This document shows positions 8,498 through 32,356 of a stretch of DNA of 36,499 nt, one piece after another. The position numbers were made by a program, and so were the translations under genes. Location: NCBI GenBank assembly GCA_048884785.1, contig JBHLQM010000031.1, positions 1 through 36,499 of the forward strand. Direction: 5' to 3'. Position 1 is the first letter of the stretch, and the number at the start of each line of letters is the position of its first letter. The notes under the pieces were generated by a model. It was not told the origin of the DNA. It saw only the letters and a program-made list of their open reading frames with translations, and made no database searches. The stretch is from Candidatus Thorarchaeota archaeon (GTDB taxonomy: Archaea > Asgardarchaeota > Thorarchaeia > Thorarchaeales > Thorarchaeaceae).

Positions 8498-8573
8498 ATC
8501 CAGCCCATCAGCTCCCTCGTTCTGTTATGTCGGCGATATTTATGCTTAGGGAATTTATGAAAATAAGAGAAAT

Positions 8574-12836: not shown

Positions 12837-15004
12837 TTCTCCATATATTTCGGAATCCCATTTCGAAATGCATCTCTTGCATCACTCAATGAGATGGCAA
12901 ATTTACCAAAATTCGCCAAGTTATCTGTGATAGTTAGTCCTATCTCACAAATCTGAACGCCATGCTTCTCCATGATCGATTGGAATTCAACTTGATTGCT
13001 TTCAGGGACTTCTGCAACATATCTGGCTGAGGACTCTGAGAATAGCTGCTCTGCTAATCCTCTTGCACTTCCTGGCGTGCCCTCAAGGTCCAGTTTGAAC
13101 CCATAGGGACTATTCAGAGTCATCTTCATGAGAGAAATAGCTACTCCTCCTCTTCCAATATTATTGCAGGATCGAATAAGATTCCTGGAGTGGGCCTCCA
13201 ATATTGCGTCCATCGACCTCTTTTCTTCTATAGGACGATATCTTGGAGGTAGACCCTTAACACTCCCCAACATCACTCGTTGAAGTTCAGTTCCATTTAA
13301 CTCAGAATGAGTTTCTCCAACGAGGAAGATGTTACTCCATGGTGTGATAAGATTCCGCCTGACAGGCATAAACCCATCTCTAAAAAGACCAGCCATCATG
13401 ATCTGTGGGGTAGGATTTACTCTATGAACAGACCCATCGATTTCTGACTCATTATATAATGATACATTTCCACCAACAATAGGAATGTCAAAATCATGAG
13501 AGAATTGTCCAAGACCTTTCACGGATTCGACAAATTGAGCATATGAGTCTGGCCGCTCAGGATTCCCGAAGTTCAAGCAGTCGGCAATAAAGATTGGCCG
13601 TGCACCCATGGATACAATATTCCGAAGCGATTCTGCAGCTGAATTTGCCGTACCATGAAATGGATCGAGATTACACCAGCCAGAGTTGCAGTCGCTTGTA
13701 AATGCCAGCTTTTTGCCTAACGGAAATTCTAGTACACCTGCGTTTTCGCCAATATCAACAACCGTGTTTGATTGGACATGTTGATCGTATTGCTGAAACA
13801 CCCATGACCTATCACAGACATTCAGAGATTCCAGTATCCTTAGGATTGTTCCTGGGTAGTCAGTAGGGTCAGTAAACCAACCAACTCCTGGACTTCTTGT
13901 TGGTAGTAAACCAATTGGCCTCTCAGGTTCGGGAAAGCCATCTACCAATAGGTCGATAGGAAGACTCGCCTTGACTTCTCCACGCTCGAGAACTGTATAC
14001 ATCTTGTCATCTGTAACTTTGCCAAAAACAGCATAGGGTGTGTCGTTTTCCTCCAATATTTCTACTACGCGGTCGAGTTTTTCTGGACTAACAATCGCGA
14101 GCATTCGCTCCTGAGATTCTGAAACAACAATCTCATGTGCCTTCATATCTGGTTCTCTGAGTGGCACCTTATCTACTTCAACAACGACTCCCGTTCCTCC
14201 CTTGAAAGCAAGTTCTCCTGCGGCTGAGGTCATTCCTCCGCCACCAAAATCCTGCAGTCCGTCGAGCAGTTTCTCCTTGACGAGTTCGGTAAGGGTGTCA
14301 ATTAGCACCTTTTTTGAAAGCGGGTCTCCAATCTGAACAGCCGCGCGATTTTCCTCCTCTTCATCTGAGAATGTTTCAGATGCAAAACTAACACCTGCTA
14401 TCCCATCTCGTCCAGTGGTTGAGCCGAACATGACAAGGTGATGGCCTGGTGTTCTTGCACTACTCCTTACTACAAACTCAGGCTTGATCACTCCTACGCA
14501 TACTACGTTTACGAGACAATTCTCATTGTAGGATTCATCGAATTCTAGATCCCCTCCCAGCATTGGTATTCCAACGCTGTTTCCATATTCGCTAATTCCT
14601 CTAACAACATGTTCTAGGAGATATGCATTTCTTGGATTTTCAGGGGATCCAAATCGCAGGCAATTCATTAGGCCAACTGCTTTGCAGCCCTGTGATATCA
14701 CATCACGAATGATTCCTCCAACTCCGGTAGCCGCACCATTGTATGGATCTATCTGACTTGGATGATTGTGAGATTCCATTGCAACACCTACAAGGTATCC
14801 ATCGCCAATATCCACTAGTCCTGCTCCCTCTCCAATTCCCAGAAATACTTGATTTCCAGTTGTCTTGAAAAGGTTGAACCATCTCTTACTACTCTTGTAG
14901 CTGCAGTGTTCCGACCAGAGAACATCTAACATGGCAAGCTCTGTTTCGGTAGGCACCCTCCCAAGGACTGATGCAGCATAATCCATTTCTTCTCTTGTGA
15001 GCAT
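12833..15004 (-). CDS. purL: FGAM synthase synthetase subunit (small-type PurL)
   Basis: [36 protein letters not shown] and GGNVSLYNE. Confidence 0.97.
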
Positions 15005-15009
15005 AGCCT

Positions 15010-15708
15010 CTATGCCTCCCTCATGGCCTGTACAAAATTCTCAAGGATTCCTAAACCGTCAACCGATCCGAGTACCAACCTGGACGCCCGTTCGGGATGG
15101 GGCATCATCCCGAGGATATTCCCTTTCTCATTTGTAATTCCAGCTATACTGTAAATAGCCCCGTTTGGATTGGCTGCCTCAATGGCTTCTCCTTCCTGAT
15201 TACAGTACCTGAAGGGTATTCTATGACCATGCTTGAGTCGTTCAAGATCTTCTTCTGTGCAGTAGTAATTCCCCTCCGCATGAGCGATTGGGAGTCGAAT
15301 CACTGCGCCTTCCATTCCATGAGTGAAAGCTGTATGGTGACCAGAAACTTTGACATAAACCCACTTGCATATGAAGTGAGCAGAAGCGTTCGGCAACAAA
15401 GCACCAGGTAGAAGACCTGATTCAGCAAGAATCTGAAATCCATTGCAAATGCCAAGGATTGGCTTTCCAGAGTCTGCCATTGCTCTGACACCATCAAGGA
15501 TGGATCCCACTGATGCAACAGCGCCAGCCCGAAGGTAGTCCCCATATGAAAAGCCACCGGGAATGACTACTCCTTTTGCGTTCTTCAATGCATCTGAACC
15601 TTTGCTACTTGGTACTAAGTATGGCTCTGCTCCTGGAATCAACTTAAGTGCCCTCACTACATCATTTTCATTATTTGTTCCAGGAAATCTGATTACCGCG
15701 ATTGTCAC
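15010..15708 (-). CDS. purQ: FGAM synthase glutaminase subunit
   Basis: FPGTN, PGGFSYGDYLRAGA, LGICNGFQIL, NPNG and GMMPHPER. Confidence 0.97.
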   Translation of the reverse strand: MTIAVIRFPGTNNENDVVRALKLIPGAEPYLVPSSKGSDALKNAKGVVIPGGFSYGDYLRAGAVASVGSILDGVRAMADSGKPILGICNGFQILAESGLLPGALLPNASAHFICKWVYVKVSGHHTAFTHGMEGAVIRLPIAHAEGNYYCTEEDLERLKHGHRIPFRYCNQEGEAIEAANPNGAIYSIAGITNEKGNILGMMPHPERASRLVLGSVDGLGILENFVQAMREA

Positions 15709-16682
15709 ATCTGCATCCTCATATGATGTTTCTCAGCAATTGGATTTGATAGAAGCTTGAGATTCATCAAGATTAACTGCTCCAAAATGCTGGATGTAAT
15801 TGGGGTGGAGATGCCAATTTGGAATACTTTGCCCATACGCACCTCGGCTACATCTTTGAATCCGAGTCGCAGCAAAGCCTTCTTGGTAACTTCCCCGGGA
15901 GGGTTCTTAATTCCATCCTTTGGCATTACAGCTACATAGACTATTTCCATCCTTTTTGCGACTTTATCTTGATCGACTTTATTGAGGGTTTTTAGAAGAA
16001 ATGCATATGCTTTGGCGATATCCCCCTCTCCTTCTCGAAATAGATCCTTATCGTATGACTGCTTTCTAGCATTCCATACTCTAATGGTGTCACCGGAGAT
16101 TTCGTCCGCAAGAAGAATGGATCCATCTGGAGTTTTTCCGAACTCTAGTTTGAAATCCACAAGGTTCAGTTTTGTCTGCATGAACAATTCTGAAAGATAA
16201 TAATTCACAGACAACGTGATTGATTTCAGGAAGGCAATGTCATCTTCTGATACAAGTCCTAATCCTATTGCAGCTCCTTCGCTTATTAGCGGATCATGCA
16301 ATATATCATCTTTGAGAAAGAATTCGACGAGAGGCGGTTGGATTTCCTCTCCCTTTTTCACGCCATATCTTCTGCAGAATGACCCTGCAGCTAGATTTCT
16401 GCAGACAACTTCTAAGGGAAGTATCTCAACTTTTCTGCATCGAATCTGAGGTCCTTCCAGTCGCTTGACAAAGTGTGTTTCTATTCCCTTTGAAGATAGG
16501 TATTTCATGAAATACTCTGTCAGATCGCATGTCAGGGCACCTTTTCCTGCAATCACCTTCTTCTTTCTACCATCACCAGCTGTAACTCGATCAGTGAACT
16601 CGATGATTATATTCTCTTCTGAGGTTTCATCGCTGAAGATTTTTTTCGCCTTTCCCTCATGTATCAATTCCATTTTTGACAC
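15705..16682 (-). CDS. purC-purS: Fused PurC (SAICAR synthetase) and C-terminal PurS
   Basis: HEGKAKK, PLEVVCRN.AAGS, LVDFKLEFG and ADEISGD. The last ~80 aa (VMPKDGIKNPPGE...LGF..V.EVRMGK.F...LLSNPIAE) match PurS. Confidence 0.93.
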   Translation of the reverse strand: MSKMELIHEGKAKKIFSDETSEENIIIEFTDRVTAGDGRKKKVIAGKGALTCDLTEYFMKYLSSKGIETHFVKRLEGPQIRCRKVEILPLEVVCRNLAAGSFCRRYGVKKGEEIQPPLVEFFLKDDILHDPLISEGAAIGLGLVSEDDIAFLKSITLSVNYYLSELFMQTKLNLVDFKLEFGKTPDGSILLADEISGDTIRVWNARKQSYDKDLFREGEGDIAKAYAFLLKTLNKVDQDKVAKRMEIVYVAVMPKDGIKNPPGEVTKKALLRLGFKDVAEVRMGKVFQIGISTPITSSILEQLILMNLKLLSNPIAEKHHMRMQM

Positions 16683-16695
16683 CTCTGGTTATTAG

Positions 16696-17769
16696 TTAGG
16701 TTGTTATCTCTCCTAGCATGCCTTCTTCTATTGCGTTACCAATATCAATCATACACAGGTCTAGGGGAGATTGAATGAGTTGTTTCATCTTAAGCGTAAG
16801 CCTTCGCATTTCCGGGCTTGTTGGCCCAACACAGGGAGCTCCTGGTACTCTCGGACTAAGGTCAAAAACAACAAATTCAGAATCCTCGGTCATTGCACCC
16901 TGCAATGAGAATAGCCCAATCATCTTCGGTGGAAAGTGTTCTTTTATGCCATTCAAAAGACGTTCAGCAGCATCATACACAAGCGGCTTTTTGCTCTCTC
17001 GCATTGTTATTCCAAAATGACCAATTTCCTCATTCATTGGAATCAGGTTCAATTTCAGCTGGTCTTGAGCTGGAAGATTCAGGAGACCCGTCAAGTTCGT
17101 TTGAATTCTATCATCAAATCCAACGAAATCCAGCTCACCATATGTATCAGACATTCCATATGCCTGAAAATTGGAATTGAATCTTGGAGCCACAATGAAC
17201 TCCTCAATTGTGGCAGTCTTTAGATCATCTCGACCAATTGCTCCTTTTTCAATCAACGATTCTGCGATGTTGTGGAAGTCTTCAGGAGTATTTGCATAGA
17301 AAAATGCCCTTTCAAGAGGATTATCCTTTTGCTGGACTTTTACGATTGCCAGTCTATCGATATTATTTGGCGTGAAAGCTTCAGGGATTCTGATGCCTGA
17401 TTCCTTCAGTAGCCAATACTGGTCTCTCGGAACGCCTCTCTCTTCGACTCTTAGGATGTTTCTGTTTCCATAGATTGGTATTCTGAAGTGCTTCTCAATA
17501 TTCTCGTAGCCAACATAAACACTGAAAGATCTGTTAGGAATCCAAATAGCTCCGAGTTCGGCAAGCTTCTCTTGAATTTCGTCCGAGATTATCTGTTTAA
17601 AATCATCCAGCACAATAATCTCATCATACAGATGCTTGTTGTAGTGAGTATATAGCTTCTCTCTCCCTTTCTGGCATACTACAACTGTAGGAAACCCAAA
17701 TGACCTGGCAGACATGCCAATCTCTTCTGCACTATGAGATCCAATGGTTCCAATCGTTGGTTTTCTCAT
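16696..17769 (-). CDS. purP: PurP-family ATP-grasp (formate-dependent FAICAR synthetase-like), paralog 2
   Basis: IGTIGSHSA, IPNRSFSVYVG, IYGNR, LERAFF and EIGH....RES. Confidence 0.88.
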   Translation of the reverse strand: MRKPTIGTIGSHSAEEIGMSARSFGFPTVVVCQKGREKLYTHYNKHLYDEIIVLDDFKQIISDEIQEKLAELGAIWIPNRSFSVYVGYENIEKHFRIPIYGNRNILRVEERGVPRDQYWLLKESGIRIPEAFTPNNIDRLAIVKVQQKDNPLERAFFYANTPEDFHNIAESLIEKGAIGRDDLKTATIEEFIVAPRFNSNFQAYGMSDTYGELDFVGFDDRIQTNLTGLLNLPAQDQLKLNLIPMNEEIGHFGITMRESKKPLVYDAAERLLNGIKEHFPPKMIGLFSLQGAMTEDSEFVVFDLSPRVPGAPCVGPTSPEMRRLTLKMKQLIQSPLDLCMIDIGNAIEEGMLGEITT

Positions 17770-17853
17770 AGAATCTCCTCGCAGTAATGCACCTCTCTTC
17801 CATCAATACTTGTGAGGTCGTGAAACAGTTTGTAAGTCTTGTTATTCGCGGTT

Positions 17854-18807
17854 CTATTGCAATGCCTCACTCAACCTATCCTCCTCAAGCAGTTCTCTTA
17901 TTTCAAGCGCAACTCGTCTCCCCATCCACATTGGTTCATTGAATTGAAGATAGGAGTATGGGGAAGAGGGGATCCATACATTTGTTCCAGCGACAATTCT
18001 ACCGCTAAACTCGAACACATGTATATTCTGATGCCTATCGATTATTGTTTCAATGCAAAAGGGTCCAGGGATAATCCTGCCTGTTGACTTTCGAAAGCTT
18101 TCTATAAAATCATGACCCATTTTGTGATACTTCAGCAAAAGTGATTCGCGGAGCACCAAGGGAAGATTACCTACAACGACAAAAGATGGCCGATCATCGA
18201 ATCGAAGGTTTGCATCTGCATCAGTTTCGTACCTGATATCAGCTCCGAATATCTCAAGACGGTTGCGGGCTATGGAATTGAAATAGGTAACAAATACCTT
18301 TGTCCCAACAATAAACTCCTGAATCGAGTACTGCTTATCTCTTGGAACCTTATCGTTGAATTCTGCCATATTAGCGGCTATGAAGTAGCCTTCCCCACCA
18401 GCTGCACCATAGGTCTTTACAATGACCGGTCTATCAATCTCTTCTGCTGATGAGAATTCATGAGGAACCCTCAGTCCAGCATCAGTGATTAGTTTTGTTT
18501 TGAGCTCTCTATCTTCTTCCCATTTCAATAGCTCAATGCTCCCAAACATTGGAATTCTGGATTCAATCAGTTTTTTTGCACCAATATATGCAACGAATGA
18601 GCCATGGGGAATCCATACAATGTCATCCAGCTGCAGATTTAGTATATCCGAAAAGGAATCAACTTCTATTATTGAAGATTCCAGCCCATAGCTTCTATAG
18701 AAATCAGTTCTGTCTGGAGTTGAAACAAGAATGGTTTCGAATCCTTCTTTCTTTGCCCCTGATAGAATGTTCAGAGCACTATGGCTTGCAATGGTTCCAA
18801 TCTTCAT
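17854..18807 (-). CDS. purP: PurP-family formate-phosphoribosylaminoimidazolecarboxamide ligase, paralog 1
   Basis: IASHSALNIL.GAKKEGF.T, IPHGSFVAY, GAAGGEGYF, GNLPLVLRESLL, GPFCIE and FEFSGRIVAGTN. Confidence 0.92.
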   Translation of the reverse strand: MKIGTIASHSALNILSGAKKEGFETILVSTPDRTDFYRSYGLESSIIEVDSFSDILNLQLDDIVWIPHGSFVAYIGAKKLIESRIPMFGSIELLKWEEDRELKTKLITDAGLRVPHEFSSAEEIDRPVIVKTYGAAGGEGYFIAANMAEFNDKVPRDKQYSIQEFIVGTKVFVTYFNSIARNRLEIFGADIRYETDADANLRFDDRPSFVVVGNLPLVLRESLLLKYHKMGHDFIESFRKSTGRIIPGPFCIETIIDRHQNIHVFEFSGRIVAGTNVWIPSSPYSYLQFNEPMWMGRRVALEIRELLEEDRLSEALQ

Positions 18808-20201
18808 CTGATTGACCTCTCATAATCCCGGCAATTCTCTGAATCCCCATTTTCCTCGATAGATTGCCTGATTCTTCTCGCAAATTCTGTCGGGTATTCG
18901 CCATCAAGGCAGGCGAAACAGAGATCCTTGAGGCCAATGGCATTTTCAAGCCCATTTTTGTCTTGGTAGATGAGTGCATCTGCTTGAATGTATTCCGCAA
19001 TTCCGTCAACTGATGTGTCTGAAGCAATCAATTCCTTATCAGTCGCGATGTCAATTCCGTAGTAGCATGCATGAATCTGAGGGGGGCAAGTCACTGCAAA
19101 GAAAACCTTGTTTGCACCATTTTTCTTGAGGTAGGCCACAATCATCTTTCCCGTTGTGCCTCTCACTATTGAGTCATCCACAACCAGAATATTCTTTCCT
19201 CTTATCTTGCCTTGAAGATAGATGTATTTGTTCTTCGCCATTAAGTCACGGTCTTTCTGAGTGTTCGCAATGAAGGTCCGACCAAGATACCGATTCTTCA
19301 AAATGATTTCACGCATTGGCACATCTAGGTCTTCTGCCAATGCCTGAGCAGCAGGGCGACTGGTGTCAGGAACTGGAACCACATAGTCTGGTGTTTCTAG
19401 ATTCATCTTCTTGAAGATTCGAGCAAGGGCTCTTCCCAGTCTGAATCGAGTGTCATAAACCAGCTGATTCTCAATAGTCGCTGCAGGGTGTGCAAAATAT
19501 ACGTATTCGAAAAAGCAGTGATTGTGTGTTTCATTCTGAGATATTGAATGAGATTCCATACTGAGTCCGGGGCCAAATATCACTAGCTCGCCAGGATAGA
19601 CATCTCTTTCAAGATTTAAACCCGCCATTTCAACAACTGTACTCTCAGATGCGACAACTGTAAGGTTCTCAGATCGGCCGAATACAAGAGGTTTGAATCC
19701 TCGAGGATCCCGATATGCAAACATTCTGCCTTCATGTAAACCAACCAAACTGTATGCGCCATCCACCTCTCTATCCAAAGCCTTGAATGCCTCAATCAAG
19801 TCCTGATTGCTTTTTGAGAGATGATGAGCAAGCCTATCAGCTATGAATTCCGAATCACATTCATAGCCTTCAGAAGTGAATTTGGTCATGTTTGTGATAT
19901 TTCCGTTATGAGTCAGTGCAACCTCATCCACGTTAAATGGGCCCACAAATTTCTCCAAATCAGCTTCTGATCCAACTCTTCTTCCGGATGTCGGATACCG
20001 AGTGCTTCCAATAATCAGACAACTTCTTTCGTCTGGTATATCCAGCAAGGAAGGATTTCCAATTACCTTTCTTGCCAAATAACCTTCGTCTGTTGACCAG
20101 AGGATTCCTGAAGCATCTTGTCCTCTATGAGTTAGCAAAAGCAATAGATCTCTAGAGGCTGGGAGGGAAAAGCTCCCCAGAATTCCGATAACCCCACACA
20201 T
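18804..20201 (-). CDS. purF: Amidophosphoribosyltransferase
   Basis: N-terminal MCGVIG nucleophile, HRGQD, HNGNI, CFFEYVYFA, VDDSIVRGTT, YYGID and CFAC Fe-S ligands. Confidence 0.97.
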   Translation of the reverse strand: MCGVIGILGSFSLPASRDLLLLLTHRGQDASGILWSTDEGYLARKVIGNPSLLDIPDERSCLIIGSTRYPTSGRRVGSEADLEKFVGPFNVDEVALTHNGNITNMTKFTSEGYECDSEFIADRLAHHLSKSNQDLIEAFKALDREVDGAYSLVGLHEGRMFAYRDPRGFKPLVFGRSENLTVVASESTVVEMAGLNLERDVYPGELVIFGPGLSMESHSISQNETHNHCFFEYVYFAHPAATIENQLVYDTRFRLGRALARIFKKMNLETPDYVVPVPDTSRPAAQALAEDLDVPMREIILKNRYLGRTFIANTQKDRDLMAKNKYIYLQGKIRGKNILVVDDSIVRGTTGKMIVAYLKKNGANKVFFAVTCPPQIHACYYGIDIATDKELIASDTSVDGIAEYIQADALIYQDKNGLENAIGLKDLCFACLDGEYPTEFARRIRQSIEENGDSENCRDYERSIR

Positions 20202-20202
20202 C

Positions 20203-20814
20203 TTAATTATCCTCCTTGATGACGACTTTCCTGTCAGTCACATTCAGTCTTCCTTCAAGATACAGTCTTACGGATTCAACTAGGATTTTGTGTTCTTCAG
20301 CAAGAATTCTATCGGCAAGAGATTCTGCAGTATCATTTTCCATTACAGGAACAACTCTCTGAAGGATAATTGGTCCTCCATCCATATCGTGATTAACAAA
20401 ATGCGTTGTGCATCCTGAAAATCTTACTCCGTATTCAATTGCCTGCTTCTGAGCCTCGGTTCCTTTGAATGCTGGCAAGAGAGATGGATGAACATTGATT
20501 ATCCTGTTTTCGTATTCAGAGAGGAAGACTTCTGATAGGATTCTCATATAGCCTGCAAGAATAACGAGGTCGATGCCATTTTCTATCAGTATCTCAAGAA
20601 CGCGTTTATCGTGCTCTTCCCTAGTTGGGAACTCTTTCTTTGTTACAATCTCAGTCTTGATACCTGCCCTCTTCGCACGTTCTATGGCTAGAGCATCTTT
20701 CTTGTTGCTAATGACAATCTTGATTTCTCCACCAAGTTGTCCTTTTTGGCACGCATCGATTAGTGCTTGAAGGTTTGTGCCCCTGCCGCTAACTAATACA
20801 CCCACCCGGCTCAT
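20203..20814 (-). CDS. purN: Phosphoribosylglycinamide formyltransferase (10-formyl-THF dependent)
   Basis: SGRGTNLQA, LAGYMRIL, INVHPSLLPAFKG and GCTTHFV...DGGPII. Confidence 0.97.
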   Translation of the reverse strand: MSRVGVLVSGRGTNLQALIDACQKGQLGGEIKIVISNKKDALAIERAKRAGIKTEIVTKKEFPTREEHDKRVLEILIENGIDLVILAGYMRILSEVFLSEYENRIINVHPSLLPAFKGTEAQKQAIEYGVRFSGCTTHFVNHDMDGGPIILQRVVPVMENDTAESLADRILAEEHKILVESVRLYLEGRLNVTDRKVVIKEDN

Positions 20815-22672: not shown

Positions 22673-24094
22673 CTAGAGTTTTCCAATCCTTTGTAGATAT
22701 CTCGACCTCTTCCTAATGCCGTTAAGCATTTGGACGGCTTCTTCTATCGTATCACCACAAGGAATGCCATTAATCTCAAATCCTCTTATGATGACTTCAT
22801 ACTTGTCCAAGTCAGGAACATATGCGACCACAGTCTTGTTTTTCAGCTTGGCAACATTAGCGACTCTTGCACCAATCTGTAGTGAGATTCCAGGAGCATA
22901 GGGAAGCAGCAGCAGCAAAGCGGCATCAACATAATCAATGTCCAGCATCACGCGAAGCACCCCTTCATAGTCCACGTCAGAAGCACTTCCGGTCAAATCA
23001 CACGGATTCTTGAATGAGGCTATACCTTGATACGCAGGCGTCACTGTTTCCCTCATTGCCGACTGATCTTCTTCAGTAAACTTAGGAAAAACGAGTCCAT
23101 AATGTTCTGCTTCATCAGAAGCAATGACCCCATGCCCACCACTAACTGTTAGACAGCCAATCCGATTCCCTATCATTGGCCTCTCTGGAAAAGAGAATAG
23201 CTTGGCATATGCCATGACTTCATCCTCATCATTTGCTTCAATTACTCCAAACTGTCGAAAGGCAGCTGATGAAACAACTGCACTGCCAGCTAGCGATGAA
23301 GTATGACTCTGAGTTGCTCTATGACCAGCCTCCGACTGGCCTCCTTTTAGGACAATAACGGGTTTCTTGGGCGAGATTTTTGAACAGATATCCACAAACT
23401 TTCTCCCTTCGTCCTCTCCGAATCCTTCAATATATGCAAGAATTGCTGTAATGTTTTTGTCATTCCCAAAATGCTCTATAAAATCGTAGACCTTCACTTG
23501 AGCTGAGTTGCCAATGGATATTGCAGCTGCAATTCCAACATCCCTCGACGCAAACTCCTCAAGTCGCTCAATAAGCCACCCTCCACTCTGGGACACTATT
23601 GCAACAGTCCCTTTCCTTGTACGTGCAACTCTTTCAGAAGGTAGGAAGAAGGTGTCCAAAACCTCGGGTACAAATACACCGATGCAGTTTGGACCAACCA
23701 TTGTGATATTGTATTCATCCGCTATGCTCATAATCTGATTCTGAAGGTCAATCCCTGCTTCTCCAGTTTCGCTGAATCCTCCAGATACAACAATGACAGC
23801 TTTGATCTTCTTTTCTCCGCACTCTCTTAAAATGCCAGGTACATAGCCAGCAGGCACTGAGATTACAGCGAGGTCGATATCACTTGGTGCCTCCGTAATA
23901 GATTTGTAGACTTTTTGTCCCTCAACAGTTCCTCCCCTTGGATTGATAGGATAGGTAGGTAGGCCATTTTCGAAGCACAACTTCCTGAAAATCACATTTC
24001 CAGGTGAGAATGGATTTGATGTTGAAACGCCTACAACAGCTGTCACTCTCGGTTTGAGCATGATATCCAAGCCTTTCATCTGGTATCTCACCAA
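22673..24094 (-). CDS. acdA: ADP-forming acyl/acetyl-CoA synthetase alpha subunit
   Basis: YPINP, SGGFSETG, GPNCIG, VSQSGG, YIEG, phospho-His motif SHTSSLAG, and NPCDLTG. Confidence 0.9.
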   Translation of the reverse strand: MVRYQMKGLDIMLKPRVTAVVGVSTSNPFSPGNVIFRKLCFENGLPTYPINPRGGTVEGQKVYKSITEAPSDIDLAVISVPAGYVPGILRECGEKKIKAVIVVSGGFSETGEAGIDLQNQIMSIADEYNITMVGPNCIGVFVPEVLDTFFLPSERVARTRKGTVAIVSQSGGWLIERLEEFASRDVGIAAAISIGNSAQVKVYDFIEHFGNDKNITAILAYIEGFGEDEGRKFVDICSKISPKKPVIVLKGGQSEAGHRATQSHTSSLAGSAVVSSAAFRQFGVIEANDEDEVMAYAKLFSFPERPMIGNRIGCLTVSGGHGVIASDEAEHYGLVFPKFTEEDQSAMRETVTPAYQGIASFKNPCDLTGSASDVDYEGVLRVMLDIDYVDAALLLLLPYAPGISLQIGARVANVAKLKNKTVVAYVPDLDKYEVIIRGFEINGIPCGDTIEEAVQMLNGIRKRSRYLQRIGKL

Positions 24095-24128
24095 TTCCTG
24101 ACTTGCGCAGTCAAAGAGGTTTTCCCTT

Positions 24129-24163
24129 ATATGGCATATGGCTATGAAGCAACATGAAGCAAC
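24129..24163. repeat. Two adjacent short tandem duplications in the intergenic region
   Basis: ATATGGC x2 (24129-24142), then T, then ATGAAGCAAC x2 (24144-24163). Confidence 0.6.
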
Positions 24164-24179
24164 AAAGAAAGGACAGTAG

Positions 24180-25235
24180 TTATGGTTTGATTTCGGCCAA
24201 TATATCTCTTAATCTTGGTTCAGCTAGAATTGCATGTTGCAGTTTGCACAGAAGTTTAGTAACCTCAGCATATACTGCAGCTCTTGCAGGATCCGTGGAT
24301 GCCTCGGCGCTTTGAAGAGCCTCTTCAGACTGTTGGTTAATCCTCTTTATTAGTCGCTTTTCTAGTTCAGGACCGCCCCATCCAAAACCATCGAATGCAT
24401 TATGAGCCTCAGATATTTTATCCTCTGGATTTGGTAGCTTATCTGTAAGCACCCCCTCGAGTCCTTGGAAGTATTTGTGCACGGCTCGATTCACTCTCTC
24501 TGATTCTGATGCGTCCAGATAGTTCTCCTGAGCTCTTTTCAAAGAAAGGTCCTGCAGTAAACGTGCACCTGGGGCTTCGGTGAGGAGACCTTTGACAACC
24601 TTCGCCATGATTCGAGATGGAATCTCAATGACGTCCCCGATATACTGGGACTCAGACTGATACCTATGGATTTCCCTTATTACCTCAAGCCAGAATGTTG
24701 GCAAAAGCACATGACATCGCTGAGAATATTGCTCAATCAGGCGCTGTGTTTGGCCTATTATCCCCCACTCATCATTTTCCATCCCGACTTTTCGATAGGG
24801 TTCTTTGGGGACTTGAAGCTCGCCTTCAGCAATTGCAACAATTCGAGAATCGCCTGCTTGCGCCTGTTGAGTGTCAGATGTTCTTGTACGTCCTTCACCC
24901 TCAAGGAGAGAAAGAATTTCTTGAGCAGGTGTTGCTCTGGTCTCGGCCTTCTTGGCTTGTTCTGAGAGCTTTGGCAAAATGCTCTCTATCTGGGTGAGCC
25001 TTTTCACAATCAGGCTCAGGATGTTTGTTGTGGATTCCGGGATGCCCTCAGCCGTTGTAGCTTCCTCTATCCAAGACCTTGTCTTGATGAGCCCTTGAGT
25101 AAGAGAGTCAATACGGTCGGGATCGACATAACCCTCGACCTCTGAGCTGATTAGGAAATGTACTAGTGTTGAATTCAAAGCTACTATTAGGAGAAGCCTA
25201 TCAACGATATCTTCTGTCTTGAAGGGCTCTGTCAC
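24180..25235 (-). CDS. Hypothetical alpha-helical protein, third gene of the tubulin-like operon
   Basis: Long ORF with no recognisable motif. Likely start is GTG 25235, preceded by GAGGT overlapping the upstream TGA (the track start 25265 overlaps the upstream gene). Confidence 0.8.
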   Translation of the reverse strand: MTEPFKTEDIVDRLLLIVALNSTLVHFLISSEVEGYVDPDRIDSLTQGLIKTRSWIEEATTAEGIPESTTNILSLIVKRLTQIESILPKLSEQAKKAETRATPAQEILSLLEGEGRTRTSDTQQAQAGDSRIVAIAEGELQVPKEPYRKVGMENDEWGIIGQTQRLIEQYSQRCHVLLPTFWLEVIREIHRYQSESQYIGDVIEIPSRIMAKVVKGLLTEAPGARLLQDLSLKRAQENYLDASESERVNRAVHKYFQGLEGVLTDKLPNPEDKISEAHNAFDGFGWGGPELEKRLIKRINQQSEEALQSAEASTDPARAAVYAEVTKLLCKLQHAILAEPRLRDILAEIKP

Positions 25236-25239
25236 GACC

Positions 25240-26634
25240 TCACATCCCTGGCTGTATTTCTCCACCTGCGCCTGGTGTCATGTAGTAGCTGAAGAGTTCT
25301 CTGAAATCGGAAATAGCATCAACAAGCTCTTTTCTTTGTACTCCTTTCGAACGCATGAACCAGCTTTGCTTTAGCGGTGACGCGCCACTGTGAAGATTGA
25401 CAAGCTGAGTAGCTTCATTGATGATCTGGACCAGTTCGGGTATCTTAGGTAGACCCAGCAATACCAGAAGATTCACTTTTGGATCCTTTGTGAGATATTG
25501 AACGTAGCATGGCGTGATAGCTGCACCCGGAGCAATGAACTTGTCAAGTGCCTCTTTCAAATGCATGCCATATTCTGCCTTGCTGATATGTCGCGGTCCA
25601 GAAAGCACATAATATACTGATTCCGCATTTGGTTCATCTCCAACATCTGCATAGGACGATTCACGTACCGCATAGTCTATCATTGCTTTAAGCTGACGCG
25701 GCATGCTCCCTGCATCTGGAATTAGTCCCACATCTGTATAAAGTGCAGGAACAACAATTGGATCCAATTTCCTTGCATAATCAGCAAGGTCAGTGGTTGG
25801 AAAAACATCCTTGTGTGGCTCATAAACTCCTGGTGAGAGCATAGCTTCCACGACATCCAGTGCGAGAGGATTAACGAGTTCAACAAAAGCCTGTTCTGTT
25901 CTCGTTTCAAGCTCGCCTGCTTCATCAAGCGTTGAGGGGACCATCTTCTCTATTGAATCAATATCAGCAATATCGACTGACAATTCTCGTTGAAGATAGT
26001 CTACACTATCGGCACGTCTCGATTGCAGGATTCTCTTGAGCATGGTTCTGTTGCTTAGCAGAATCGTGAGGTCGGCTCCTCTCTCTTGGAGCTGTGCTCT
26101 TAGAAGCCTTGAAACCGCCCATATGGAGTTCAAAGCTTCGCTTGATTGCCCCTCGAAGGGGAGGATCCCAATCACATAGACAAAAATGCGGCGTCCTTCC
26201 TCCTCTTGGAACCTTTGCTTCAGAAGCTCGATGATTGCTGGAGTGCCACCGCATCCAGTACCACCACCAAGGCTTGTAAAAATGCAGAATCCTGAGACTC
26301 CCTCAAACCCGAGGTTGCTCAATTGGTCGAATATGATGTCTTTGGACTCGATAACAGCATTGTATCCATCCATGAACCTACCACCAACACCGATTTCACT
26401 TGCCCCATAGAGGAGTGTATGCTCCTTGGGGATTTCGTATTTTGAGCGCACCTTTGTCAGGTCTGCCCTGTCGGTGTTCATCAAGAGATAGCCTCTTACT
26501 CTTGAGGGCAACTTCTTGTCTATGCTTGCCTTCAAATAGGAACCCACTATATTTGACCCACACTCTCCAACGCCTATGGCAAAGACTTCTGCAGCCTTTG
26601 TTTCTTCTTCCCCTAATCTTGGTGGTCCACTCAT
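25240..26634 (-). CDS. Divergent tubulin/FtsZ-superfamily GTPase (CetZ/tubulin-like)
   Basis: IGVGECGSNI (T1), NTDRADL, GVGG (T3), signature SLGGGTGCGG (T4), ILPFEGQ (T5), LLSN (T6), TTDLADYARKLDP (T7), and C-terminal VNLLVLLG. ATG follows GGAGGAG. Confidence 0.92.
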   Translation of the reverse strand: MSGPPRLGEEETKAAEVFAIGVGECGSNIVGSYLKASIDKKLPSRVRGYLLMNTDRADLTKVRSKYEIPKEHTLLYGASEIGVGGRFMDGYNAVIESKDIIFDQLSNLGFEGVSGFCIFTSLGGGTGCGGTPAIIELLKQRFQEEEGRRIFVYVIGILPFEGQSSEALNSIWAVSRLLRAQLQERGADLTILLSNRTMLKRILQSRRADSVDYLQRELSVDIADIDSIEKMVPSTLDEAGELETRTEQAFVELVNPLALDVVEAMLSPGVYEPHKDVFPTTDLADYARKLDPIVVPALYTDVGLIPDAGSMPRQLKAMIDYAVRESSYADVGDEPNAESVYYVLSGPRHISKAEYGMHLKEALDKFIAPGAAITPCYVQYLTKDPKVNLLVLLGLPKIPELVQIINEATQLVNLHSGASPLKQSWFMRSKGVQRKELVDAISDFRELFSYYMTPGAGGEIQPGM

Positions 26635-26652
26635 CTGATTCTCCTCCTGTGA

Positions 26653-29343
26653 TTATCCTCGTTTGCCGACCATTGACTGAGCAATCTCTCTGATTGCCCA
26701 TGTCAAATATGAGCTTATGTCTTCTCTACTATAAGTATCCTTGATTTTTCTGATTGCATCATCAAGGAATTTCTCTCGCTCATCTACTCCGGCAGCAGGA
26801 CTGAAACCGGTCATGAACATCTTCAAGGACTTATGCCAGTCGTCCATTTTCTCTGCCTTTTCAATCCATTCTTTTCTCATCTCTCTTAATTCATTATACG
26901 CCTCTAGAGCCTTGTCAAGTTGTTGTGCTGATGTCAGGTCCTTCTCTAGAGTGCCCATCTTCGATAAGTCATAGATGAGTTTACTGAAGTCCTTTGGATG
27001 CTTTCCAAAAACCCGTTCAATGGTTGAGTAGTATTGGCTTTTTTCACGTATCTCATTGTAATAATTCTCTGTATCCTTTGATGCAATGCTTTTGATAACT
27101 CCAAGCATTTCTTCTTGGACATTTGCCAAGGTTAGGCACACCTCGAGAGGTTCAGTGATATACTTGGATTCCTCCTGCATCTTGCTGGGAACTTGCTCTA
27201 GGAGCGATTTCAGACGCTTTACGAAGTCATCCATACCTTGATCCTCAAAAAGTGAAACCGCACCAAGGATTTGCCGATATGCATCGTCGCCGCGCTCTCT
27301 CACTCTATCTTGAATATCCTTTGAAGTAGTCAAGCCGGCCAGATGGTCAAATGAATCAGCAGCATCTTCCAACTCGACTGGAGGTTTGTCCATAACGGAT
27401 TTCAGAAGCTTTAGCTCCTTCTCCAGCGGCACTCCAATTGAGGCTGCTTTTGAGAATGAGGTGTGCAGATTCTTTGCTTCCTTTTGAAGTGACTCGATTA
27501 CCTTGCCAGTGATTTTCTTTTCATAGAGTTCTATCATTTTTCTTGCGATAGCTGGAAGGCTAAACACAGTTTCTGCAGCAACGCCAATGCTATTCAATTC
27601 TGCAATTGCATCTTGGACTTCCTTGGGTATTTCTGCTCCAGCTCCCATGAGTTTAGCTGCTGCTAGTCGGATTTTAACGCCCAACCTATATCGAAGATTT
27701 TCAAGCGCTTCTTTTGCCTTCGCAAGTATTGTTTCCTTAATTGTACGCATCTCAGAGCGAATCTCTGCGAAATCATCCATCTGCTTTATTCTATCAGCAC
27801 CTTCATCCAAATCGACAACGATGGGCATGAAGATTTCAGCGTAAGCTGGTTTTATTGTTTGAAGGTCTTCAATGATTGCATCAATCTCTTGTTTGCATGC
27901 TTCTCGAAATGTTGCAACTCCGCTTCCAACGGCAGTCCGGAGGCTCTCAAGTGATTGCAACAAATATACAATTCCTCCGCCCTCAAGTTCTTCCATTTTA
28001 GGTGCTTTCTTGCTCAGCTGCGCATAGTCAAGAACCCTGTCTGCTGAAGTGGCAAGTTCATTGAATCGTGCTAGGAAATCCTTAATGTGTTGCTTTACAA
28101 CTCTCTTATGCTCTTCATCCAATGCATTTGCTTTCACGTATACTTCGATCATCCCGTCAAGTTCGTTCTTCTCCAGATGGCGGCGGGATTGCTTCACAAA
28201 GTCCCTTATCGAACTAATATCGGTGATCCCAGTATCACTGGCGGCGTCTCCTGCCTTTTCTACATCATCAATTAACTCTTCGACCTTTCCCTTAAGAGAA
28301 ATCTTCACCTGTCCTTCCCATTCTACCATCTTCTGATATGATGACAACAAGCTGGGTACTTCTTGATTCTCGACAACAAGTGATGGAGCCTGAGGTATAA
28401 CGTCAGAAGTGGTTGGAATACCATTCTCGACGAATTTGGTCGTTGTTTCGTGCTTCATGTTGATGATTCTATCCTTCAACATATTTGCAACTTGAAGCTT
28501 AGATGCCTGCATTTGTGATTCGAGGCTAATTAGAGTTGTCAAATTCTCTGCACTGGATGCATCCCTTGCCAAAACTCGTAGTTTCTGACTGAAATCCATA
28601 GGAAGCTCAAGACCGAGTCTAACAGATGTTTCCACCCATGCCTGCAGGGATTCAATATCACTCATCAAAGAAACACCAAGCATGCGGCCAACTTCGCCTC
28701 TTCTTCCGTCAAGATACACCTTCTCTGCCTGAAGCTTATCATTGATTGAAATCAAATCTGCCGCAGAGAATCCTGATACATCTTCGTTTGAAACAGAGGT
28801 TGATACTTCTCCTCTATCTATCGTGACATGCCTTTCAAAAGTTTCAATGGTTCTTTTGTTTTCATCAAGAAGGTCTTTGACGGTCCTTGATAACTCATTC
28901 AGGAGCCCAGAGGACTTCTTAGAAAAAACATCTCCGAACTGGAACAGCTGTTCAAAATCTGACATGTCTCCTGCACCAATTGAAGGGAACGATACCGAGC
29001 CTAGTGCCTTTGCCTCTGCAGGCTTGAGTTCTTGCAGTTTAGGAACAGACGCCATTATGTCCCTATGTTCTCGTCTAAACAGCTCTGCGAAATCCCTTAC
29101 AATTCTCATAAACATGTCTTCAAGATCGTTGTTGATTTTCTCCAGCTGCGATTGAATCTTCCTCTTTTTCAAAACGCCAGATGCTCCAAGCTCATTCTCA
29201 GCCTTGGTAAATGTGGCAAAAACCTCATAGAGTTGGCGAACCTGATGGGATGTTTGCTCCTCAAGTCCTGGATTCAGGTTAACCAACATTCCTTTCATCT
29301 CTGAGAGGCGGTCGAGCTCGCGTCTCCACTTTTTGCTGTCCAA
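26653..29343 (-). CDS. Large alpha-helical/coiled-coil repeat protein (896 aa), first gene of the tubulin-like operon
   Basis: Rich in E/K/L/A/S with heptad-like helices and no Walker motifs. TTG start follows a strong GGAGGT SD. Ends 18 nt before the tubulin-like ATG. Confidence 0.88.
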   Translation of the reverse strand: MDSKKWRRELDRLSEMKGMLVNLNPGLEEQTSHQVRQLYEVFATFTKAENELGASGVLKKRKIQSQLEKINNDLEDMFMRIVRDFAELFRREHRDIMASVPKLQELKPAEAKALGSVSFPSIGAGDMSDFEQLFQFGDVFSKKSSGLLNELSRTVKDLLDENKRTIETFERHVTIDRGEVSTSVSNEDVSGFSAADLISINDKLQAEKVYLDGRRGEVGRMLGVSLMSDIESLQAWVETSVRLGLELPMDFSQKLRVLARDASSAENLTTLISLESQMQASKLQVANMLKDRIINMKHETTTKFVENGIPTTSDVIPQAPSLVVENQEVPSLLSSYQKMVEWEGQVKISLKGKVEELIDDVEKAGDAASDTGITDISSIRDFVKQSRRHLEKNELDGMIEVYVKANALDEEHKRVVKQHIKDFLARFNELATSADRVLDYAQLSKKAPKMEELEGGGIVYLLQSLESLRTAVGSGVATFREACKQEIDAIIEDLQTIKPAYAEIFMPIVVDLDEGADRIKQMDDFAEIRSEMRTIKETILAKAKEALENLRYRLGVKIRLAAAKLMGAGAEIPKEVQDAIAELNSIGVAAETVFSLPAIARKMIELYEKKITGKVIESLQKEAKNLHTSFSKAASIGVPLEKELKLLKSVMDKPPVELEDAADSFDHLAGLTTSKDIQDRVRERGDDAYRQILGAVSLFEDQGMDDFVKRLKSLLEQVPSKMQEESKYITEPLEVCLTLANVQEEMLGVIKSIASKDTENYYNEIREKSQYYSTIERVFGKHPKDFSKLIYDLSKMGTLEKDLTSAQQLDKALEAYNELREMRKEWIEKAEKMDDWHKSLKMFMTGFSPAAGVDEREKFLDDAIRKIKDTYSREDISSYLTWAIREIAQSMVGKRG

Positions 29344-29568
29344 GAGAGTACCTCCTTAATCGGCGATAAATGAGGGCGACTACATCTTAAGTGTGTTCTG
29401 TGTTTGTGTCCCTCTGATTTATGCGAATTTGGTTTCAACTGGTAATGAAATTTGATATTACATTGGAGAAAAACATTACTTTGCGCACGTGAGTAAAATC
29501 TTAAAACAGTCAATTTTTGAAACGAGGGTAATCTAATATTCGCTTATGCAAGCGAAGGGAGTAGAAAA
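29344..29568. promoter_or_regulatory. AT-rich divergent intergenic region (probable back-to-back promoters)
   Basis: 225 bp between divergent genes, containing TATA-like tracts (AAAATCTTAAAA, TAATCTAATATT). SD-like motifs precede both flanking starts. Confidence 0.45.
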
Positions 29569-31713
29569 GTGTCAATCTCTTCGGGAGGTACAGCGGAATC
29601 ACTACGTCTTCAGCATAGAATAGAAGCTGAATTTGGGAGCGACGTGGTATATATCAATCATGACGAGAAATATGTCTATGCCGCTTGTACCGACTTGAAA
29701 GTTAGGGTTTGGTCTAAGGATGAATGGCAGCTAATTGCCACCTTAGGTGATACTACCTCTCCTCCTCTTGCAGTTCATATTGATGATGAACATGTCTACG
29801 CAACATGTGAGAAACGAGTCTATGTCTGGACCAAGAACACATGGGGGATGATTGGCTGGTTTGAACTGACATACACAGCTGTAACTTCTACACTTCGAGG
29901 CGAGTATCTGTATGTTGGTGCAAAAGAAGGGCGTCTAGTATCAATAAAGAAAGACACTCATGATACTTCCAGTTGGCAGTTGTTCAAATCTGATATCACA
30001 CGTATTTGGGCTGATGGAGAGATAATCTGTACATCAACAAACAAGGATGAATCAGTGGTTTGGAAAATCGAGAAAAACACCGCTCCCTCAGAGATTGCGC
30101 GTCTTGACAAGAAGGACAAGGGTGCCCACATTACTGGCAACAATGCCTACATATTATCCGGATTGAATACATCTGAAATTAAAATGTGGGATAGAGTTGA
30201 TTGGTCTCGTATTAGGACACTGCAACCGGCAGGAAACAACGGTCTGGTATCTCTCTGGTCCAATAGTATATACCTAATATCTGCATCAAATACCTCCAGT
30301 ATTAGTATCTGGGATTTGAGAAAGGGAACTACCATCGGCACATTCAAAGTGAATGGATTCAAGATATTGCAGGTTCGTGCTGATAGCAAGTATGTCTTTC
30401 TGGCTACTACTGCTGGCATTAAGGTTCTTTCCCTGTCTATTGGAGGGCAGCAGCTCGATCTGAATGCAGATGAGAATTCTCTCTACGGAACTCAGGTATT
30501 GAGAACCTCTCCTTACGATGTGCTCGAGGTAGTTCTAGAGTTGCAGAAAAAGGGGGATCAGTTTCTTGATGAAGGAGAATATCATGAGGCTGTTTCTGAA
30601 TTCGAGCACGCTCTTCAACTATTGATTGATAACAACCAAGCACTTCTGGAAGTACCAAAAGAAAGGGAAAAAATCACAACTGAAATTAATGATCGACTGG
30701 GCCAATCCTTGCTGCGAGCCAAGATAGTAGAAATGCAGGAAATTGTTGATGAAATTGAATCCATCACGGATGAACTTGATCGTGAGGGGCGAACGAGTCG
30801 AGACGAAGAGTCTCTAGATAAGGTCTGGACTATGGCATCCCGTGCGATAAAGGAGAGTAGGGTTCTGGCTGAGGCTCAAGGTGGACACATACTTAGCTAT
30901 CAGCTTTCTCATGAATCTGACATTCTGGATTCCAGTCTTTCCAAGGCGAAGGAAAAGGTTGAGAAGTATAAAGAGAAAATTACCTATGCCCTAACGCTTA
31001 CTCAAAACATCCGAAGTGAGTGGCGGTGGTTAGAGCGAAAACGAACCTCTCTTGAAGACCGACTAGCGTTTTTGGAATCCGCAGTGAGGAAGCTTGAAAC
31101 ACGAATAAAGGAATCCTCTGCAGATGATGAAGTTCGGAATATTCTTGTCACAGCATTAAATGAGTACACACAGCTTAGAGATCAGATATCTCGGATTCTG
31201 GATGCAAGCACAAATGACTCGAAGGATGTTCTCCTGTCAAAGGATGAGGCAATCGCGGCTATTGAAGGGTTGCTTAATGTACTTCCAAAGCGTAGAAAAT
31301 CAATCGAAAAGATTAGTGATGATGCTGAAAGACATAGAGAGATGAATCAGTTAATAGAAGCACTTCAACAGGCGGTTGAAGCAGCTGAGCAACATAAGTT
31401 GAAAGACGAGGCTCTCAAGATCAACGCAGAAATGGCAACAATTCTTTTGAAAGATGAGGCCGAGGAACCTTCGATTACGTCAGAAACACCAAGGCTTGAA
31501 ACTGAATCTGAGCCACCCAAGGAGGAACCCCAAACGTCCAAAGAGGAACCTGTACTACCAAAGGTGGAGAAAGATGAGCAATCAGAAGAAAAACCAGCAA
31601 AGGTCCCAAAAAAGAAAGAGAGCAGCGCAAAGACTCCAAAACAGCCTTCGAAGAAGAAAACTAAACGAAAGAGATCCACAACGAAGAAATCTCCTCGCAA
31701 AAAGTCAAATTGA
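29569..31713 (+). CDS. WD40 beta-propeller + MIT/TPR-like helical bundle + coiled-coil + low-complexity Lys-rich tail
   Basis: Repeated WD-type blades (KVRVWS, RVYVWT, EIKMWD, SISIWD) in aa ~20-290. Then GDQFLDEGEYHEAVSEFEHAL, a long coiled-coil, a P/E-rich linker and KKKTKRKRSTTKKSPRKKSN. Confidence 0.88.
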   Translation: MSISSGGTAESLRLQHRIEAEFGSDVVYINHDEKYVYAACTDLKVRVWSKDEWQLIATLGDTTSPPLAVHIDDEHVYATCEKRVYVWTKNTWGMIGWFELTYTAVTSTLRGEYLYVGAKEGRLVSIKKDTHDTSSWQLFKSDITRIWADGEIICTSTNKDESVVWKIEKNTAPSEIARLDKKDKGAHITGNNAYILSGLNTSEIKMWDRVDWSRIRTLQPAGNNGLVSLWSNSIYLISASNTSSISIWDLRKGTTIGTFKVNGFKILQVRADSKYVFLATTAGIKVLSLSIGGQQLDLNADENSLYGTQVLRTSPYDVLEVVLELQKKGDQFLDEGEYHEAVSEFEHALQLLIDNNQALLEVPKEREKITTEINDRLGQSLLRAKIVEMQEIVDEIESITDELDREGRTSRDEESLDKVWTMASRAIKESRVLAEAQGGHILSYQLSHESDILDSSLSKAKEKVEKYKEKITYALTLTQNIRSEWRWLERKRTSLEDRLAFLESAVRKLETRIKESSADDEVRNILVTALNEYTQLRDQISRILDASTNDSKDVLLSKDEAIAAIEGLLNVLPKRRKSIEKISDDAERHREMNQLIEALQQAVEAAEQHKLKDEALKINAEMATILLKDEAEEPSITSETPRLETESEPPKEEPQTSKEEPVLPKVEKDEQSEEKPAKVPKKKESSAKTPKQPSKKKTKRKRSTTKKSPRKKSN

Positions 31714-31714
31714 T

Positions 31715-32356
31715 CTAGCTTCCAGCTGAAAAGGCATTGTCAAAGGACAATTCAGAATCTGACAGCAAATCATATTCTTCCCTTAGGTCATCAATCCAGT
31801 CGTCAGAAAGACTCTCCAGAATCGGGTCGATTGCAAAAGCCTGTTCTGCGGCACCCAATGCTGCTCCAACATCTCCGAGGACGTAATTGCATGCTGCTAA
31901 GTTGTACCATGTAATAGATGAATTTGGATTTAGCTGGATTGCGTTGTGAAATGCCTCTCGAGCTTCTACCCAATTCTCAAATGTCATGTATGCAGTTCCG
32001 AGCAAGTACCAGTCATTTTGGTTTCTAGGATTGAGCTTTAGGGACTGCTGCAATGCTCTTATCCCTTCAGATTCCTCGTTCAGAAGGAAGTGTAGATATG
32101 CCTTATCTGCCCATATTCTGGAAGCTTTAGGATCCAACGTCAGAATAGAGTTCATTGCTTCCAATGCCTTCTTTGGCCTCTTTAACTCAAGATTGCAGAT
32201 GATCACCCTGTCTAATACCGATCTGTTTTTGGGATCAATTTCTGCCGCTTTTTCCAGCGCTTCGATTGCTTCGTTGAACTTGGATTTGTTCATCAGCGTC
32301 GATGCGAGGTCAAGGATTTGTCCTGTCTCAGGACTGTTATTGGTATTCGTCAACAC
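31715..32356 (-). CDS. Tetratricopeptide repeat protein (~5 TPRs, acidic tail)
   Basis: EAIEALEKAAEIDP, ALQQSLKLNP, WYLLGTAY...AFHNAIQLNP and WYNLA. Confidence 0.92.
   Translation of the reverse strand: MLTNTNNSPETGQILDLASTLMNKSKFNEAIEALEKAAEIDPKNRSVLDRVIICNLELKRPKKALEAMNSILTLDPKASRIWADKAYLHFLLNEESEGIRALQQSLKLNPRNQNDWYLLGTAYMTFENWVEAREAFHNAIQLNPNSSITWYNLAACNYVLGDVGAALGAAEQAFAIDPILESLSDDWIDDLREEYDLLSDSELSFDNAFSAGS

Follow-up and report, generated by a model that had tools for sequence, protein, structure and literature searches.

A probable tubulin-type filament system in Asgard archaea: a conserved operon of an Asg.Tub GTPase and two helical partner proteins

We describe a three-gene operon from a Thorarchaeal genome (Candidatus Thorarchaeota archaeon, GenBank assembly GCA_048884785.1) that probably encodes an Asgard-specific tubulin-type filament system, made up of a GTPase of the published Asg.Tub group and two dedicated helical accessory proteins. 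The operon lies on the minus strand of the 36,499-nucleotide (nt) stretch that we analyzed, positions 1 to 36,499 of contig JBHLQM010000031.1, which we refer to as the window. The trio is a deeply conserved tubulin-type module whose central protein has already been named and whose partners and organization as a system are undescribed in the literature that we searched. A preliminary description of this DNA had proposed a novel cytoskeletal system, and novelty holds for the three-gene system but not for its GTPase family, which had been published as Asg.Tub (PMC9871819). The features of the operon are:

26653..29343, minus strand: gene 1, the all-helical large partner, 896 amino acids (aa), TTG start (open reading frame, ORF, and translation)
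25240..26634, minus strand: gene 2, the tubulin/FtsZ-superfamily GTPase of the Asg.Tub clade, 464 aa, ATG start (PF00091)
24180..25235, minus strand: gene 3, the small partner, 351 aa, GTG start (homolog N-termini)
29344..29568, no strand: A+T-rich intergenic region of 225 nt between the operon and a divergent WD40 gene (sequence read)

Both the ORFs and our reading of the sequence bear out the co-orientation of the three genes (896, 464 and ~351 aa) and the gaps of 18 and 4 nt that had been reported for them. The preliminary description had also assigned a Shine-Dalgarno (SD)-like motif to each gene, and this holds for the first two: the TTG of gene 1 at 29343 is preceded by AAGGAGG, 8 nt upstream, and the TAA stop of gene 1 is followed by an 18-nt spacer that contains AGGAGG and leads to the GTPase ATG at 26634. 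At gene 3, however, where 4 nt separate the TGA stop of the GTPase gene from the GTG at 25235, the sole SD-like motif is a weak GAGG that overlaps the stop; because of this short gap and weak motif, the second junction looks like a case of translational coupling. The longest ORF of gene 3 spans 24180-25265, and the GTG at 25235 is backed by the N-termini of homologs in the small-partner alignment. The operon promoter is presumed to lie within 29344..29568; scans for sigma-70 promoters and terminators, which are not applicable to an archaeal host, gave no excess.

That the middle gene encodes a genuine tubulin/FtsZ-superfamily GTPase, as had been proposed, and one with intact GTPase motifs, is clear from its match to PF00091 over residues 16-200 (72.4 bits, the cut-off being 33) and from the conservation of its active-site loops. 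The T1 (GxGECGSN), T4 (GGGTGCG), Asn195 and T7 (TTDLAD) elements are retained in 78-80 of 80 distinct full-length homologs, and GGGTGCG, which corresponds to the superfamily signature GGGTG(S/T)G, the sugar-binding Asn195 (T6) and the T7 residues Asp282 and Asp285 are present in all 80, those of Baldr and of the second Hodarchaeal paralog among them. Both aspartates fall in the sequence P-T-T-D-L-A-D-Y, which we assigned to T7 by motif pattern (FtsZ, NVDFAD; CetZ, VVDAxE; tubulin, NVDLTE) and not by structure. In the FtsZ/tubulin superfamily the T7 acidic residues act only across the longitudinal (head-to-tail) interface between subunits. Between Thor and Heimdall/Hod genomes the GTPase retains 54-55% identity and its partner proteins 19-20%, whereas FtsZ identity in the same genome pairs is 44-64%; for Thor-Hod, the GTPase is 55% identical and FtsZ 44%. 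Intact nucleotide motifs, invariant T7 residues and conservation equal to or above that of FtsZ lead us to infer that the protein is a self-assembling, GTP-hydrolyzing polymer.

How is this family related to the named groups of the superfamily? We searched 1.84 billion representative proteins exhaustively with HMMER and obtained 523 bits for Heimdall members, 396 for Baldr, 108 for a rare sister and at most 63 beyond, and because of this drop in score the family is an island in sequence space. Among solved structures, the family profile scored best with CetZ1 of Haloferax volcanii (4B46), with 49 bits for a match confined to the N-terminal domain, versus 450 bits for a canonical CetZ profile on the same structure. 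Other CetZs (including CetZ2, 4B45, at 35 bits and Methanothrix CetZ, 3ZID, at 37 bits), gamma-tubulin, OdinTubulin and AtubA followed at 26-37 bits, with TubZ far lower than the CetZs and tubulins. A profile-profile comparison matched canonical CetZ across both domains (probability 99.6%, E-value 9e-25, 345 columns, 21% identity).

We placed the family in a tree of 72 sequences (LG+C20), in which the groups were labeled by profile search against solved structures since NCBIfam could not separate CetZ from the other groups; for eukaryotic tubulins and artubulins we took the placement in the published tree (PMC9871819). The GTPase family forms a single clade (99% support in the Shimodaira-Hasegawa-like approximate likelihood ratio test) outside canonical CetZ, the FtsZ1 and FtsZ2 of the same genome and the bona fide Asgard tubulins, and the family and the latter are separate, fully supported clades. 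By both tree and profile scores, then, the GTPase does not nest within a characterized CetZ or FtsZ clade. Its sister in our tree is a rare pair of proteins, a weakly supported placement in a tree whose deep branches are unresolved.

A group to which this GTPase belongs had been named by Santana-Molina, del Saz-Navarro and Devos in 2023 (Front Microbiol 13:1100249; PMC9871819), who described Asg.Tub as a "novel CetZ-like group in Asgardarchaeota" from four sequences, two from Thorarchaeales (AB-25 and SMTZ1-83) and two from Heimdall (LC-3 and B3-JM-08), and who found its gene context to consist of unknown genes, mostly with coiled-coil regions. In their tree Asg.Tub is long-branched, a weak sister of Halo.Tub (support 62) and apart from both canonical CetZ and the tubulins plus artubulins, its position being unstable between CetZ and tubulin (PMC9871819). 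All four sequences of their supplementary C-terminal alignment bear the motifs of the family described here; moreover, the AB_25 contig corresponds to one of our loci (L038, 88% identity) and the LC_3 protein (P0117) falls inside the clade with 99% support. The GTPase of the window is therefore a member of Asg.Tub. The 2023 paper (PMC9871819) does not define an operon, partner families or their co-distribution, nor does it offer a structural or functional analysis, and we found no bench study of Asg.Tub in the literature searched. Likewise, the three-gene system set out below is absent from that literature, which describes neither the two families of partner proteins, nor how strictly they co-occur with the GTPase, nor the joint duplication of the GTPase and the large partner.

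The resemblance to CetZ is that of another archaeal tubulin-superfamily paralog besides FtsZ1 and FtsZ2; CetZ functions in cell shape and not in division (PMC9856176, citing Duggin 2015). Asg.Tub differs from it in lying outside the canonical CetZ clade, in having cysteines in T1 (GECG) and T4 (GGGTGCG), in being restricted to Asgard archaea and in having two dedicated, co-encoded partners. To our knowledge, CetZ genes have no such dedicated partners encoded beside them. The Asgard tubulins (OdinTubulin, Lokiarchaeum AtubA/B and the alpha/beta-tubulin of Heimdallarchaeales) are likewise Asgard members of the tubulin superfamily, and the GTPase has tubulin-like motifs, namely the T1 cysteine and, at T7/H8, DLADY..KLD against DLTEF..NLV of tubulin. 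The bona fide Asgard tubulins, however, carry the Tubulin_C domain (PF03953), for which the GTPase gave no match at E-values up to 1.

Two other kinds of locus with tubulin-like GTPases were seen in the course of these comparisons. The nearest outgroup, the rare sister pair of our tree (P0129/P0239, 27-32% identical to the GTPase family), occurs on two contigs (L089:8001-10149 and L104:6001-8180) as a two-gene unit, in which the gene of a 457-aa tubulin-like GTPase runs into the start of, and is translationally coupled to, that of a ~265-aa protein with an unmistakable N-terminal transmembrane helix. We considered the latter as a homolog of the small partner, but homology was not supported (hhalign probability 8.8%). 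At L090:2150-16678, a divergent tubulin-like GTPase of 435 aa (P0136) is encoded near a 913-aa PQQ/WD40-type propeller protein and unknown proteins of 680, 222 and 648 aa, and this cluster adjoins a ubiquitin-like set (ThiF E1, UQ_con E2, JAB and a YukD-like protein). The P0136 locus is reminiscent of the ESCRT-linked "adaptin-like" systems that include a CetZ-like protein (PMC10936438).

A synteny scan of one genome per GTDB species recovered a relative in 121 species, and wherever the flanks were long enough the gene order was large protein, GTPase, small protein on a single strand. Each of the 74 loci holding all three genes has this order and strand, the two gaps having medians of 12 and 14 nt, and together these loci span Thor, Hermod, Sif/Borr, Heimdall/Hod and "Asgardarchaeia"; the arrangement in the Baldr locus is identical to that of the other lineages. 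Of the 83 loci with a GTPase match, 76 have a large-partner homolog immediately upstream of the GTPase gene. When the flanking ORFs were clustered, only the three trio families were common to all lineages. The flanking genes are thus syntenic in every relative checked, and the dedicated three-gene unit around a divergent tubulin-superfamily GTPase that the preliminary description had postulated for an Asgard archaeon is upheld. An Arf-family small GTPase gene was also seen near the trio in a Heimdall locus, a few kb upstream (L005:102-1037), and in an "Asgardarchaeia" locus, directly upstream (L007:4532-5113); it was seen in no other lineage.

Similarly, the three families are inherited together. 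Of 400 Asgard genomes, 124 have the GTPase, 123 the small partner and 129 the large partner; GTPase and small partner co-occur in 120 genomes, 273 have neither and the few with one alone (4 and 3, respectively) are all fragmented assemblies. All three families are restricted to the same nine GTDB families, within which they are near-universal (for instance, 74/85, 20/22, 15/19, 5/5 and 4/4 genomes), and none of them was found in the remaining Asgard families (0/135, 0/31, 0/14 and, in two cases, 0/12 in the other large ones). This strict co-inheritance, together with translational coupling and the faster divergence of the partners (19-20% identity), suggests that the partners are dedicated accessory proteins.

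The relationship between the GTPase and the large partner appears to be closer still. Nine genomes of one Hodarchaeal genus have two GTPase matches, a second copy being frequent in Hodarchaeal genomes, and in the one example inspected (L088; G067:C1:2889500-2907500) the gene of the second GTPase (441 aa; 7920-9245, minus strand) comes directly after that of a paralog of the large partner (1140 aa; 9258-12680, minus strand) with no second small partner, which is single-copy. Because they have been co-duplicated in Hodarchaeales without the small partner, the large protein and the GTPase look like an obligate pair. Could such a pair function without a filament, the two proteins forming a stable hetero-complex in which the GTPase is a switch or assembly factor? 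We regard this as unlikely. It would fit the co-duplication and constant adjacency of the two genes, the great divergence of the family (no more than 49 bits to any solved structure) and the variable acidic insert that sits between the two domains of the GTPase. Yet it leaves unexplained why both T7 acidic residues, which in this superfamily are established to act only across the longitudinal interface, are invariant in 80 of 80 homologs, and why conservation is as high as in FtsZ, a level typical of the constraint imposed by polymer contacts.

What are the two partners? Neither reached the cut-off of any family in Pfam or NCBIfam. The AlphaFold2 model of the large partner, built with 22 homologs, has a mean predicted local distance difference test score (pLDDT) of 86.1 and a predicted template modeling score (pTM) of 0.38, and consists of about 30 long helices in successive bundles whose overall arrangement is uncertain. 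The helical rod of the preliminary description is therefore sustained as regards its all-helical nature (pLDDT 86), while its rod shape is a conjecture that the pTM of 0.38 leaves in doubt. The protein has no transmembrane helix, and hhalign comparisons between six segments of the 896-aa Thor-type protein revealed no significant internal sequence repeats (probability ≤22%). The Heimdall/Hod forms (~1170 aa) are ~270 aa longer than those of Thor because of an internal duplication, as region ~240-430 of the family hidden Markov model is matched twice.

The small partner is predicted (AlphaFold2, pLDDT 82.8) to comprise a three-helix bundle (residues ~7-100), a disordered linker (101-141) and a helical C-domain (~150-351, pLDDT ~95), the last holding all the invariant residues, including the motif LL.EAP.ARLLQ. 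Its first helix is the most hydrophobic element among the trio, with 19-residue means of 1.2-1.8 in Thor/Hermod and 1.8-2.25 in Heimdall/Hod, and is a weak candidate for membrane association. A complex prediction for the GTPase and the small partner scored 0.00, which speaks neither for nor against binding. When both partner models were compared with the PDB, the best Foldseek E-value was 0.3, and VIA (wide and pdb_via) returned generic helical bundles only (Z ≤11.6, in the range of noise for such bundles), mostly for the first ~100-145 residues, so that the small-partner C-domain and most of the large partner were barely covered. In these models, then, both partners are confidently predicted all-helical proteins without a recognizable family or fold.

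One of the structural matches bears on the question of whether the trio is a third component of division, either part of the FtsZ1/FtsZ2 divisome or a regulator of it, with the large protein acting in the manner of EzrA on the Z-ring. EzrA (4UXV) appeared at Foldseek rank 11 (probability 0.18) and in VIA at Z 7.6 (root-mean-square deviation 15.4) in searches with the whole model rather than single domains, and the match is within noise. The large partner is indeed a chain of helical bundles, the GTPase does belong to the tubulin/FtsZ superfamily, and the genome has two canonical FtsZ copies in use. However, the GTPase scores 34.9 bits with the FtsZ equivalog (NCBIfam TIGR00065) where 295.2 is required, the tree puts its family away from FtsZ, SepF or another division gene was not linked to the trio in any lineage, and absence from most Asgard families (0/135 in the largest) indicates that division has no general requirement for it. 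In light of these observations we judge a divisome role quite unlikely. With FtsZ1 and FtsZ2 encoded elsewhere in the genome and most Asgard families lacking the trio, we consider that it probably acts outside core division.

How, then, might the proposed filament system work? The Asg.Tub GTPase would bind GTP and most likely polymerize head-to-tail into protofilaments, in which each subunit would use its T7 loop (Asp282/Asp285) to complete the GTPase site of its neighbor, in the manner of FtsZ, CetZ and tubulin. The large multi-bundle protein would be the obligate core partner, with a scaffolding, cross-linking or regulatory function along the filament. The small protein has the look of an adaptor: a three-helix bundle with a hydrophobic first helix is followed by a flexible linker and by a conserved globular domain, which would be the part that docks on the filament or the rod. 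In the cell, the system probably functions in cell shape, as CetZ does, or in membrane-associated scaffolding, and not in division. The MAP-, nucleator- or anchor-like roles that the preliminary description had suggested for the partners are candidate roles. In all of this, polymerization, partner binding and cellular role are what we infer from the features described above.

Several observations weigh against the filament system as we propose it. Polymerization and the protein-protein contacts are predictions, and in the T7 stretch hhalign mis-registers the alignment owing to the variable acidic insert, our assignment there being pattern-based. In the searches above neither partner was matched to a filament-binding family or fold that is already known. 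In agreement with the preliminary description, 19-residue Kyte-Doolittle windows revealed no clear transmembrane segment in any of the three proteins (maximal means of 1.17, 1.63 and 1.73, with helix 1 of gene 3 borderline), which makes a membrane-linked role speculative. Lastly, some two in three Asgard genomes lack the trio, among them all those of the largest family in the sample (0/135), from which it follows that its function would be dispensable or replaced in those lineages.

There are precedents for such an arrangement among other tubulin-superfamily polymers, by analogy of mechanism rather than by family. EzrA is a long, spectrin-like helical-bundle regulator of FtsZ, and so likewise stands beside a tubulin-type polymer. 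ZipA and SepF tether FtsZ, and ZipA in particular resembles the small partner in having a globular binding domain joined by a flexible linker to a hydrophobic N-terminal helix, although the first helix of the small partner is only borderline hydrophobic in Thorarchaeia. BtubC, a stabilizer of BtubAB, is encoded in the operon of its polymer. None of these proteins, however, has detectable sequence similarity or significant fold similarity to either partner.

Did the trio exist in an early Asgard ancestor, and what is its relationship to true tubulin? PF03953, the mark of a true tubulin, was detected in 8 of the 400 Asgard genomes, from four families, all of which lack the trio; the genome of the window lacks PF03953, and no Asgard family in this sample holds both. 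This mutual exclusion is suggestive, yet numbers as small as these cannot carry a claim of replacement. As a tentative proposal, to which we give somewhat less than even weight, the operon may represent a third, Asgard-specific tubulin-type cytoskeleton that dates back to an early Asgard ancestor, was kept in Heimdall/Hodarchaeales, Thor, Hermod, Baldr, Sif and Borr and is absent from the lineages with true tubulins, its partners being the founders of new filament-binding families, prokaryotic counterparts of microtubule-associated proteins and membrane tethers. True tubulins are rare in Asgard archaea, whereas the tubulin-like trio occurs in about a third of their genomes, Heimdall/Hodarchaeales included, and is conserved like FtsZ. 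It is, moreover, a defined three-protein set that is open to expression, reconstitution and imaging. A filament, if shown, would be a new class of filament with two new families of filament-associated proteins; if there is no filament, the trio would provide a tubulin-fold GTPase that acts outside a polymer.

The surroundings of the operon in the window are those of an ordinary chromosomal locus. The neighboring genes have housekeeping functions and comprise a purine biosynthesis cluster and the genes of ADP-forming acetyl-CoA synthetase, NiFe hydrogenase and DNA ligase. The G+C content across the region is flat (0.43-0.47), and two canonical FtsZ genes, FtsZ1 and FtsZ2, are on other contigs of the same genome. 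We found no SepF, phage, plasmid or mobile-element genes among the neighbors in the window, as the preliminary description had noted for sepF, plasmid and phage context, and its suggestion of a probable Asgard host agrees with the Thorarchaeota names carried by the closest homologs. This setting is relevant to the idea of a DNA segregation system like TubZRC, with a filament, a DNA-binding adaptor and a centromere, since an operon of a tubulin-superfamily GTPase and two non-enzymatic partners superficially resembles tubZ-tubR(-tubY). We consider it very improbable: the locus is chromosomal, lies among housekeeping genes and is native in composition, the families are distributed lineage-wide, unlike a mobile element, and TubZ ranks far beneath the CetZs and tubulins in profile searches. 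Furthermore, no direct-repeat or other repeat array was found in the operon and its flanks (24000-29700 scanned), and neither partner matches a DNA-binding family in Pfam or NCBIfam, a family-level search that would allow for a winged-helix fold in the unmodeled parts.

Two genes on the far side of the intergenic region adjoin the trio:

29569-31713, plus strand: WD40 protein with an N-terminal beta-propeller, 714 aa, many weak propeller matches, head-to-head with the operon
31715-32356, minus strand: TPR protein, 213 aa, after the WD40 gene

These genes adjoin the trio in ~40 Thorarchaeal loci and in no other lineage. We considered a functional link to the trio and rejected it, the association being kept only inside Thorarchaeia, where the whole neighborhood is syntenic; it is probably plain synteny and not function.

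On the other side of the operon, a long string of purine-biosynthesis genes (window 8574-20814, minus strand) includes fused genes. Features of this string are:

11391-12836, minus strand: PurE+PurM-like fusion
15705-16682, minus strand: SAICAR synthetase+PurS fusion
16696-18807, minus strand: two adjacent PurP-type (DUF1246/DUF1297) genes

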